In this document: piece by piece, positions 1 to 706 of the stretch | Numbering within the stretch: the stretch's first letter is position 1 | How the letters are laid out: the number at the start of each line of letters is the position of its first letter | Assembly: GCA_045863335.1 (NCBI GenBank) | Contig: BTVY01000014.1 | Location: 1-64,000, forward strand | Length of the DNA stretch: 64,000 bases | Direction of reading: 5' to 3' | DNA from: Candidatus Hydrogenedentota bacterium | GTDB taxonomy: Bacteria > Hydrogenedentota > Hydrogenedentia > Hydrogenedentales > SLHB01 | Made by a program: the position numbers and the translations under genes | The notes under the pieces: generated by a model | What the model was told of the DNA's origin: nothing | Seen by the model: the letters and a program-made list of their open reading frames with translations, nothing else | Databases searched by the model: none

Positions 1-127
1 GATGAATACCTTTCAAGAACAATAAGTTGCCTTAATTATGATGCAATGCACTAGAGTCCGATACAACAAGCCCTGCCGCGGACGGTTAGCCGCGCGTGCA
101 GTACCGTGAACCGATGGGAGAGATTAC

Positions 128-262
128 ATGAAACACCTCATTGTCCAATCACGTTCGCGCCAGTTTCCGTTGAAAGCAGACGAAAAGGGGCCGATCATGG
201 TCGATCCCTGCGCCGGGCTTTCGGGAAAGCAACTGAAGGCGTGTGAGAAAAAGCACAACTAA
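128..262 (+). CDS. small peptide 1 (44 aa, MKHLIVQSRSRQFPLKADEKGPIMVDPCAGLSGKQLKACEKKHN)
   Basis: Translated by hand. GGGAG RBS upstream of ATG128, TAA at 260-262. Shares SxxFPxxA and DPC-x10-CE with the next two ORFs. Confidence 0.7.
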   Translation: MKHLIVQSRSRQFPLKADEKGPIMVDPCAGLSGKQLKACEKKHN

Positions 263-311
263 ACCGCAGTCAAGAGCCGCCGCAGGCGAATACGGAGGGC
301 AACACCCCGCC

Positions 312-470
312 ATGAAGAGAAAGCAACGTCTACTTAAGAATCTTTCCAAGAAGCTCCCCCTCAGTGCTGAAGCCAAGGGCGGCGAGATCCAGGATCCCTG
401 CGCGGAACTCACGGGCGTCGAGCGTAAGAAATGCGAGTGCAAGGCCTACAAGGGCGGCGTAGTATATTGA
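312..470 (+). CDS. small peptide 2 (52 aa, MKRKQRLLKNLSKKLPLSAEAKGGEIQDPCAELTGVERKKCECKAYKGGVVY)
   Basis: GGAGGG RBS upstream of ATG312. C-terminal part of track ORF 243..470. Paralogous motifs with its neighbours. Confidence 0.7.
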   Translation: MKRKQRLLKNLSKKLPLSAEAKGGEIQDPCAELTGVERKKCECKAYKGGVVY

Positions 471-492
471 CGCGAACTCGAAGGGGAGCGTC

Positions 493-648
493 ATGAAACA
501 CGTGCATTCGCAAACCAAGAGCCAATTCTTGCCCCGTCCCGCGATTAGCGTGGGCGGATTCGTCGCCATCTTGAATTGCGATTCGGAGGTCAATGACGAC
601 GGCAAAAAGTGTGAACTCGAGATCACGAAGATTGGCGATCCTTCGTAG
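493..648 (+). CDS. small peptide 3 (51 aa, MKHVHSQTKSQFLPRPAISVGGFVAILNCDSEVNDDGKKCELEITKIGDPS)
   Basis: AAGGGGAG RBS upstream of ATG493, TAG at 646-648. SxxLPxxA and C-x10-CE motifs. Confidence 0.65.
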   Translation: MKHVHSQTKSQFLPRPAISVGGFVAILNCDSEVNDDGKKCELEITKIGDPS

Positions 649-657
649 CCTGGTCTG

Positions 658-706
658 ACGGGACGCCGTGCCGCCTAGAGCGTGGGCGGTTCGGCGTCCC
701 GTTTTC
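658..706 (+). terminator. probable intrinsic terminator closing the peptide array
   Basis: ACGGGACGCCG (658-668) pairs with CGGCGTCCCGT (692-702), with an inner CCGCC/GGCGG stem, followed by a short T run. Confidence 0.6.

Follow-up and report, generated by a model that had tools for sequence, protein, structure and literature searches.

Leaders of the Nif11 type and of the nitrile-hydratase type in cyanobacteria comprise about 70 residues or more, end in GG and are served by known maturases (LanM and others). The radical SAM enzyme MftC acts on the C-terminal Gly-Val-Tyr of the mycofactocin precursor MftA. The GG-leader/PCAT peptides (TIGR01847), among them class II bacteriocins and ribosomally made, modified peptides, are cleaved and exported by ABC transporters with a C39 peptidase (PCATs); they have a short non-hydrophobic leader common to many small precursors with unrelated cores, and their genes may lie away from the transporter and occur in tandem arrays (PMC10352776). 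That account also describes precursor peptides with GG-motif residues in Bacteroidales gene clusters that contain no PCAT (PMC10352776). The locus described here lies at the start of a 64,000-nucleotide stretch of DNA (the window, positions 1 to 64,000 of contig BTVY01000014.1, forward strand) from a Candidatus Hydrogenedentota bacterium, where three small genes on the + strand (peptides A, B and C) form a tandem array. Their products share a short basic N-terminal tag, which heads about 28 small open reading frames (ORFs) with unrelated cores in this genome. The tag is undescribed and lineage-specific, and its occurrence on so many unrelated small proteins suggests a sorting or processing signal.

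By analogy of layout, the GG-leader/PCAT systems may be regarded as the closest known analogue in logic, since the array likewise combines a short non-hydrophobic leader on many unrelated cores, tandem genes and the absence of an adjoining exporter. Unlike the GG leaders, which form an acidic amphipathic helix, the tag is basic and proline-containing, and it ends in P-x-x-A with no conserved GG, GA or GS site. In orthologues, the GG at +4/+5 past the Ala gives way to GP, GV or GS, or is missing. PF03412 (C39) was found in the genome only in three giant ORFs with TPR, C39 and RHS repeats, and no PCAT is present. Because the GG-leader match and the PCAT were both tested and both failed, the tag is not a member of the GG-leader/PCAT family. 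As with the Nif11 and nitrile-hydratase leader families, one leader stands on many cores in dozens of copies per genome, with processing that would take place in trans, but the present tag comprises only 15-19 residues, and no enzyme serving it was found. Signal peptides of the Sec pathway, which are cleaved by signal peptidase I, resemble the tag in the basic N-terminus and the cleavage-region-like end (Pro at -4, a mostly small or aliphatic residue at -3, Ala at -1), but the tag has no hydrophobic h-region. The h-region expected of a Sec, Tat or lipoprotein signal is missing from peptides A, B and C, whose first 17-19 residues contain no run of more than three hydrophobic ones. The preliminary description of this DNA, made without database searches, had set the leader apart from Sec, Tat, pilin and classical double-Gly signals; this holds, as there is no hydrophobic stretch, no match in NCBIfam or Pfam at E<=10 and no PCAT in the genome.

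The consensus of the tag is M-[KR]-H-hydrophobic-x3-[ST]-[KR]-x2-5-P-x-x-A, a basic, proline-containing and non-hydrophobic segment of 15-19 residues. In an alignment of 16 tagged ORFs with unrelated cores, M1, H3, P13 and A16 are invariant, and His3 is nearly invariant in a further family alignment. A hidden Markov model (HMM) of the tag only (N-terminal 13-19 residues) was run on all 218,025 start-to-stop ORFs of the genome that encode 30-130 aa, with the first 24 residues of each as the target. Known members scored 25.6-30.8 bits and five new ORFs 15.2-22.7 bits, with a maximum of 14.8 bits for reversed N-termini; more recognisable tagged ORFs scored just below this control maximum. A regular-expression census of the tag gave 58 matches among 246,162 ORF starts, whereas shuffled sequences gave 20. 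Of the 58, about 28 were judged convincing, having an ATG or GTG start, a Shine-Dalgarno (SD) sequence and MKH-x-K-x-x-[ST]-K, a figure that is a judgement and not a statistical count. The DNA upstream of the tagged ORFs is unconserved and their codons differ, so the constraint on the tag acts at the protein level. The leader/core layout of the preliminary description is thus supported, and it extends well beyond the three peptides on which it was first seen.

Among the cores behind the tag are hydrophobic segments of the Gly-zipper type, an amphipathic peptide rich in Trp, Lys/Pro-rich peptides, other Cys pairs (among them another C-x10-C) and a calcium-binding-loop-like tail, D-x-N-x-N-G-x-I-D. 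Five tagged ORFs of 31-39 aa with Lys/Pro-rich cores (K-P-V-K repeats) are clustered at C1:111311-115024 of the window's genome (G000), and the cluster is conserved in the genomes G003 and G005. Every tagged ORF that was tested proved to be conserved in its own right. Two tagged ORFs show 86-92% identity in two congeners, and six or more of those tested are separate small families in metagenome-assembled genomes (MAGs) of Hydrogenedentes. No NCBIfam family was found at E<=10 for 26 tagged peptides, 13 of them beyond the first set. A search for a shared promoter or a motif of the extracytoplasmic function (ECF) type upstream of the tagged genes returned generic extended -10-like boxes only.

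The gene for peptide A (128-262, + strand) encodes 44 aa plus stop, with the tag MKHLIVQSRSRQFPLKA, a linker and the core DPCAGLSGKQLKACEKKHN. The gene for peptide B (312-470, + strand) encodes 52 aa plus stop from the ATG at 312, and its core is DPCAELTGVERKKCECKAYKGGVVY; the ORF listing contains an additional GTG start at 243. The N-terminus of peptide B is extended and basic and has no His3, and it is followed by P-L-S-A before the core. The tail of this peptide, AYKGGVVY, is kept in three genera (g1, g11 and g8). The gene for peptide C (493-648, + strand) encodes 51 aa plus stop, with the tag MKHVHSQTKSQFLPRPA and a divergent core that is predicted to form a beta-hairpin containing both Cys. 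All three products start with MK, and SD-like boxes (GGGAG, GGAGGG and GGGGAG) lie 5-12 nt 5' of the three ORFs. The leaders end in SRQFPLKA, SKKLPLSA and SQFLPRPA in peptides A, B and C, respectively. Gly is found at +4 after the Ala in each peptide, the first Cys at +11, +11 and +12, exactly 10 residues separate the two Cys, and the second Cys lies within KACE, KKCE and KKCE, respectively.

A GC-rich hairpin with a U run (647-711, + strand; -49.7 kcal/mol, z -5.8) follows the third gene and is the probable intrinsic terminator of the array. None of 200 shuffles was equally stable, and a UUUU run is located at 703-706. The simple terminator scan called no site here (0 sites), and the single Rfam match to the hairpin was a sub-threshold snoRNA chance hit. 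Three consecutive + strand ORFs, each with its own SD sequence and MK start and closed together by a terminator, had been proposed in the preliminary description; the ORFs and the closing hairpin are confirmed. The motif layout given there stands in part. The P-x-x-A, the Gly at +4, the Cys spacing and K-x-C-E are present in the three peptides, but the family does not keep the Ser of S-x-x-[FL]-P-x-x-A, and some relatives of peptide C have C-x9-C. The regular expression derived from that layout gave 11 matches in a six-frame search of the genome (6.75 Mb); three were these adjacent ORFs and eight lay in off-frame-looking GC-rich text, so that the expression alone is unspecific.

The three ORFs are real protein-coding genes, and every gene has its SD sequence. 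The ratio dN/dS is 0.06-0.32 for orthologous pairs in which dS is unsaturated. It is 0.19-0.23 for peptide A and 0.13-0.16 for peptide B against the orthologues in G003 and G005, 0.25 for peptide C against G005, and 0.5-0.64 for the C type against G004. In the orthologues of the operon described below, the ratio points to equal constraint on the tag (0.22) and the core (0.20); amino-acid identity is nonetheless higher in the core, at 0.86 compared with 0.42 for the leader in the B type. A 22-sequence alignment of the family shows M1, A19, C30 and C41 as invariant and P16 and K39 as nearly invariant. Five subtypes (D, A, B, C and E) can be distinguished. Types A, B, D and E have in common D-P-C-x-G-L-[ST]-G-x-E-x-x-K-C, whereas the core of type C differs and is strand-like. 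The suggestion that the core is variable behind a conserved leader is accordingly not supported, as within orthologue sets the core is better conserved than the leader and the residues between the Cys belong to this common motif in four of the subtypes.

Among 61 genomes, a profile of the three peptides detected tandem arrays in all five genomes of the same genus and one copy in another genus, and two more family copies in the window's own genome (contigs C89 and C37). Among 5.8 billion proteins, 31 matches were found at E<=0.01, and all named sources are MAGs of Candidatus Hydrogenedentes; 23 matches were found at E<=0.001 among 1.84 billion representatives. A degenerate DNA pattern, run over 185,579 species genomes, gave 12 loci. 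Five of these are titled Hydrogenedentota or Hydrogenedentes, four lie in one MAG labelled Nitrospiraceae, which apparently corresponds to G005, and three are chance-like matches inside larger ORFs. Of 135 genomes of the phylum, 16 contain the family, and all belong to the family-level group f1 (genera g1, 5 of 5; g11, 3 of 5; g8, 3 of 3; g4, 3 of 8; g9, 1 of 1). The Cys-pair peptide family is restricted to this one family of Hydrogenedentota. Scans of the peptides against Pfam and NCBIfam at E<=10 gave no match, a sequence search of the PDB with the family profile gave 0 matches at E<=10, and a full-text literature search returned nothing on RiPPs (peptides made on the ribosome and modified after translation) or leader peptides in Hydrogenedentes or Hydrogenedentota in the parts of the texts that it reached.

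The ancestral form of the array is a four-gene operon, D-A-B-C, as judged by comparison of genomes, and the three ORFs of the window (types A, B and C) are its last three genes. The array D-A-B-C is found in G003 and G005, with genes for a DprE1-like FAD oxidase and a DprE2-like SDR upstream and genes for an Na/Ca exchanger, an SDR, YceI and PBP1A downstream, the downstream set consisting of the genes that also follow the array in the window. In the window's genome, contig C89 terminates in gene D, which here too is preceded by the FAD oxidase and SDR genes. Position 1 of the window is the first base of its contig (C14), and positions 1-54 are the right end of a multicopy repeat resembling an insertion sequence (IS), which ends in CTAG (51-54) and interrupts the ancestral D-A junction. 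The first 52-55 nt of the window recur at five contig ends (C92, C68, both ends of C70, and C30), and the opposite side of the element (G000:C89:6661-6714) recurs at the ends of C13, C83, C47 and C89. The element has imperfect terminal repeats and CTAG on both sides (C89 6661-6664 and window 51-54), and its interior lies outside the assembly. A contig from a DNA run of another sample (X2) covers window positions 51-646 and continues upstream into G000:C89:6631-6660, a unique sequence at the end of gene D; in a near-identical strain, D is therefore directly joined to window position 51.

An extended -10-like box (TGCTACAAT) is conserved upstream of D together with the 5' untranslated region (UTR), even in a paralogous array. 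The 5' UTR of D, about 75 nt in length (L038 6400-6526 and its counterparts in G003 and G005), is conserved, with a small GC hairpin and, ahead of the start codon, the stretch TTTTCTAACTGCAAGGGAG, and it persists in the paralogous array G005:C360 as well. No Rfam match was found upstream of D. The spacer between D and A, which contains the SD of peptide A (55-127, + strand), is poorly conserved among congeners in the alignment with G003 and G005. Since the promoter-like box is conserved upstream of D and the D-A spacer shows no conservation, the IS-like insertion has probably cut off A-B-C from the operon promoter in this strain. The preliminary description had pointed to the DNA upstream of position 1 as the place where a radical SAM/SPASM, peptidase or exporter gene of a local RiPP pathway might lie. 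The recovered context consists of the fourth paralogue, the IS-like insertion and the DprE1/DprE2-like genes instead, with no maturase there and none shared across about 18 contexts, and a local RiPP pathway is not supported.

A second conserved arrangement of tagged genes was found at G000:C22:64542-67754. It consists of a gene for an ECF sigma factor (SigW-like, E 2e-20), a gene for a 527-aa protein and the tagged genes pep50, pep52 and pep69, which encode peptides of 50, 52 and 69 aa, respectively. The 527-aa protein begins with an anti-sigma-like helix, crosses the membrane once and ends in a TPR-like domain, and this architecture, together with its position, suggests an anti-sigma factor. 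For this protein Pfam gives a weak TPR match only, and a sequence search of the PDB returned nothing clear. All 11 loci examined, which represent five or more genera, contain the 527-aa gene and pep50, and nine of the 11 contain pep69; the complete unit of ECF sigma factor, 527-aa protein and three peptides has been seen only in Hydrogenedentota. The gene pep50 is single-copy in 28 of the 135 phylum genomes, with 27 of 53 in f1 and none beyond it. This conserved operon is a concrete starting point for tests of peptide signalling in these wastewater and bioreactor bacteria.

The interpretation that we favour, at a little less than an even chance, is that the peptides are processed in trans, exported and disulfide-stapled, and that they have a leader of a new type. 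The layout, in which a short shared tag leads through an invariant P-x-x-A and a variable-length linker to many unrelated cores, is a leader-dependent architecture, which favours recognition in trans, cleavage after the Ala and export. Each peptide comprises a basic tag of 15-19 residues, a short variable linker and a core of 25-35 residues with two Cys about 10 apart. The tag would serve as a lineage-specific sorting or processing signal for the approximately 28 small genes, would be recognised by machinery encoded elsewhere in the genome and would be removed after the invariant Ala, with Ala at -1, a mostly small or aliphatic residue at -3 and Pro at -4. The released core would act outside the cytoplasm with its two Cys as a disulfide, which in types A, B, D and E may staple the loop onto a capped basic helix and in type C may bridge a beta-hairpin. 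A bacteriocin-like, a signal or an envelope-associated function are candidate roles. Cleavage, export, disulfide and role are what we infer, and the calcium-loop-like tail, the Gly-zipper segments and the further Cys pairs in the tagged cores fit export. The predicted disorder of the tag, the position of three tagged genes behind an ECF sigma factor and an anti-sigma-like protein, and the redoxin or thioredoxin gene beside the peptide gene in two other genera fit it as well.

Confidence in the AF2 models is low to moderate. The model of peptide B (pLDDT 63) contains a helix only at 36-47, which starts just past the G-L-T-G turn. In the model of peptide C (pLDDT 64.6, with about 75 for residues 21-50), strands at 23-34 and 37-46 form a beta-hairpin with both Cys, and the tag, with pLDDT below 50, is predicted to be disordered. 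Several observations weigh against processing and export. Confidence is low in both models (pLDDT 63-65), and the two Cys are not directly opposite in the hairpin of the C type. The tag is neither a Sec nor a Tat signal, as it has no hydrophobic h-region, His3 is absent or shifted by two residues in peptide B of the window and in several B orthologues, and peptide C carries Arg at -3. No maturase, peptidase or exporter adjoins the tagged gene, or is shared, in the approximately 18 neighbourhoods examined from this genome and five genera, and the genome has no PCAT. The adjacency of a redoxin gene (a TlpA-like redoxin in g8 or a thioredoxin in g11) to the B-like peptide gene is a post hoc observation in two of about 10 contexts. 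Contigs from RNA libraries (X6, X9 and X19) span parts of the array and may be DNA carry-over; as contigs are unable to show transcription, they were not counted as evidence of expression.

The strongest rival, unlikely though with a substantial chance of being right, holds that the products are unprocessed intracellular or inner-membrane-associated small proteins in which the tag is a functional module. The tag could then be a docking peptide for a common partner (protease, chaperone or anti-sigma factor) or a positive-inside anchor for the hydrophobic members; its X-X-His N-terminus could form a metal site of the ATCUN (amino-terminal Cu- and Ni-binding) type, and the Cys pair could bind metal or act in thiol redox. 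The missing hydrophobic signal and exporter agree with this proposal, as do the invariance of His3 in 16 of 16 aligned tagged ORFs, the equal purifying selection on tag and core, the thioredoxin-fold neighbours in two genera and the spread of tagged genes over many unrelated operons. Several tagged cores, moreover, resemble membrane helices, which would leave the basic N-terminus in the cytoplasm. An intracellular module is harder to reconcile with the B-type members, which move or lose His3 and yet are the best conserved subtype, and with the linker of variable length past the invariant P-x-x-A, which resembles a junction and not a part of a fold. The predicted disorder of the tag and the extracytoplasmic-type features of some cores (calcium-loop-like tail, multiple Cys) also speak against it. 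Even more clearly disfavoured is the possibility that the ORFs are non-coding, whether as chance ORFs or as an RNA or regulatory element. They are very short, and two automatic scans for terminators and promoters gave little, but this possibility has virtually no probability left; it is already contradicted by dN/dS values well below 1, motifs that are conserved with differing codons, orthologues in five genera and the lack of an Rfam match.

True RiPP precursors, with the tag as a leader that one or more maturases with genes elsewhere would read through a recognition domain, are improbable. Here the Cys, and also Thr/Ser or the C-terminal Val-Val-Tyr of type B, would be modified before removal of the leader. 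One leader on diverse cores is the expected layout, and a shared leader joined to a core was indeed found, but a genetically linked modifying enzyme was absent from the approximately 18 contexts; in particular, no maturase adjoins D-A-B-C in G003, G004 or G005 or any other tagged gene examined. In favour of such a pathway, the genome encodes five radical SAM/SPASM proteins, and precursors with the GG motif are known in Bacteroidales from clusters that do not contain PCAT (PMC10352776). The best feature-based Protein Atlas neighbour of peptide B is a cluster named 'TIGR04149 family rSAM-modified RiPP', at a score of 0.89 that is below the reliable range; with 0 NCBIfam families at E<=10, this assignment was rejected. 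Type B resembles MftA in its invariant end ...G-G-V-V-Y with Cys nearby, but the other four subtypes do not have this tail, peptide B has no NCBIfam match, no MftA model matched, and the best match to TIGR03962 (MftC) in the genome reached 76.5 bits against a cut-off of 265, so that mycofactocin membership was also rejected. An MNIO-modified Cys peptide of the bufferin or methanobactin type was excluded likewise, as PF05114 (MbnB/TglH/ChrH-family enzymes) had 0 matches in this 99.4% complete genome. The residues between the Cys are conserved as in a fold motif, and many tagged cores contain no Cys, Ser or Thr patterns. The label RiPP is therefore not earned.

One gene of the radical SAM class does lie near a family member. 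A gene for a BchE-family B12-binding radical SAM protein and a DUF1963 gene are located just upstream of the E-type copy (G000:C37:3173-6150; G005:C486), the former about 1.3 kb upstream of it in two congeners. These genes were rejected as partners, as the linkage is confined to one genus and the radical SAM protein scores as an equivalog of BchE (TIGR02026; 536 bits, cut-off 481). Bacteriochlorophyll synthesis is unexpected in this lineage despite the BchE-family gene.

Should the tag be a sorting or processing signal, it would represent a new class of leader and would imply an unidentified peptidase or exporter in a phylum without a cultured model. It would also provide a simple sequence rule for a hidden repertoire of small peptides that is missed by the Pfam and NCBIfam libraries. 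A bolder version of trans-processing and export, which we regard as doubtful, is that the tag marks an undescribed class of export or processing signal confined to one Hydrogenedentota family, with dedicated machinery that exports about 28 peptides per genome. In that version pep50, pep52 and pep69 would feed a sensing loop of ECF sigma and anti-sigma factor, D-A-B-C would be the Cys-stapled branch, and the repertoire, subject to the same doubt, would include disulfide-stapled peptides, hydrophobic ones of bacteriocin-like character and others rich in Trp or in Lys and Pro. As an intracellular module the tag would still be unusual, as one N-terminal motif of 16 residues is kept on dozens of unrelated small proteins.

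The syntenic downstream neighbour of the array is a gene of the Na+/Ca2+ exchanger family (921-1880, + strand; PF01699, E 2e-69). The exchanger adjoins the peptide genes in g1 and g8. It was not adopted as a partner because the linkage is missing in three other genera, where no peptide gene was found upstream of the orthologous exchanger, and because a terminator lies between the two units. In genus g8, a divergent B-like peptide retains D-P-C, C-x10-C and the AYKGGVVY tail. In one genome of this genus (G012, C247), the peptide gene has a gene for a TlpA-like lipoprotein redoxin on one side and the orthologous gene for the Na/Ca exchanger on the other; in another (G123, C797), the peptide starts near a contig end and only the exchanger side is visible.

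Of the minor observations, the three giant ORFs with TPR, C39 and RHS repeats (1582 to 2214 aa; G000:C4:70382-76942, C88:3642-8387 and C61:15023-21664) look like polymorphic toxin systems, and one of them is followed by an RHS/Ntox16 protein. A C-type gene in G003 (C548; L029 8095-8276) is frameshifted near the end of the tag, on a low-coverage contig in which this may be an assembly error. One matched protein cluster (P0037, P0046, P0042, P0031) contains a hypothetical protein of the ctenophore Mnemiopsis leidyi, with an E value of 2.9e-7. A eukaryote-like signal peptide is present in this protein, and its C-terminal part consists of tandem repeats, C-x-G-L-S-G-K-x-L-K-K-C-K-K, that are closely like the motif in the cores of types A, D and E, for which convergence, transfer and compositional bias are all conceivable explanations.

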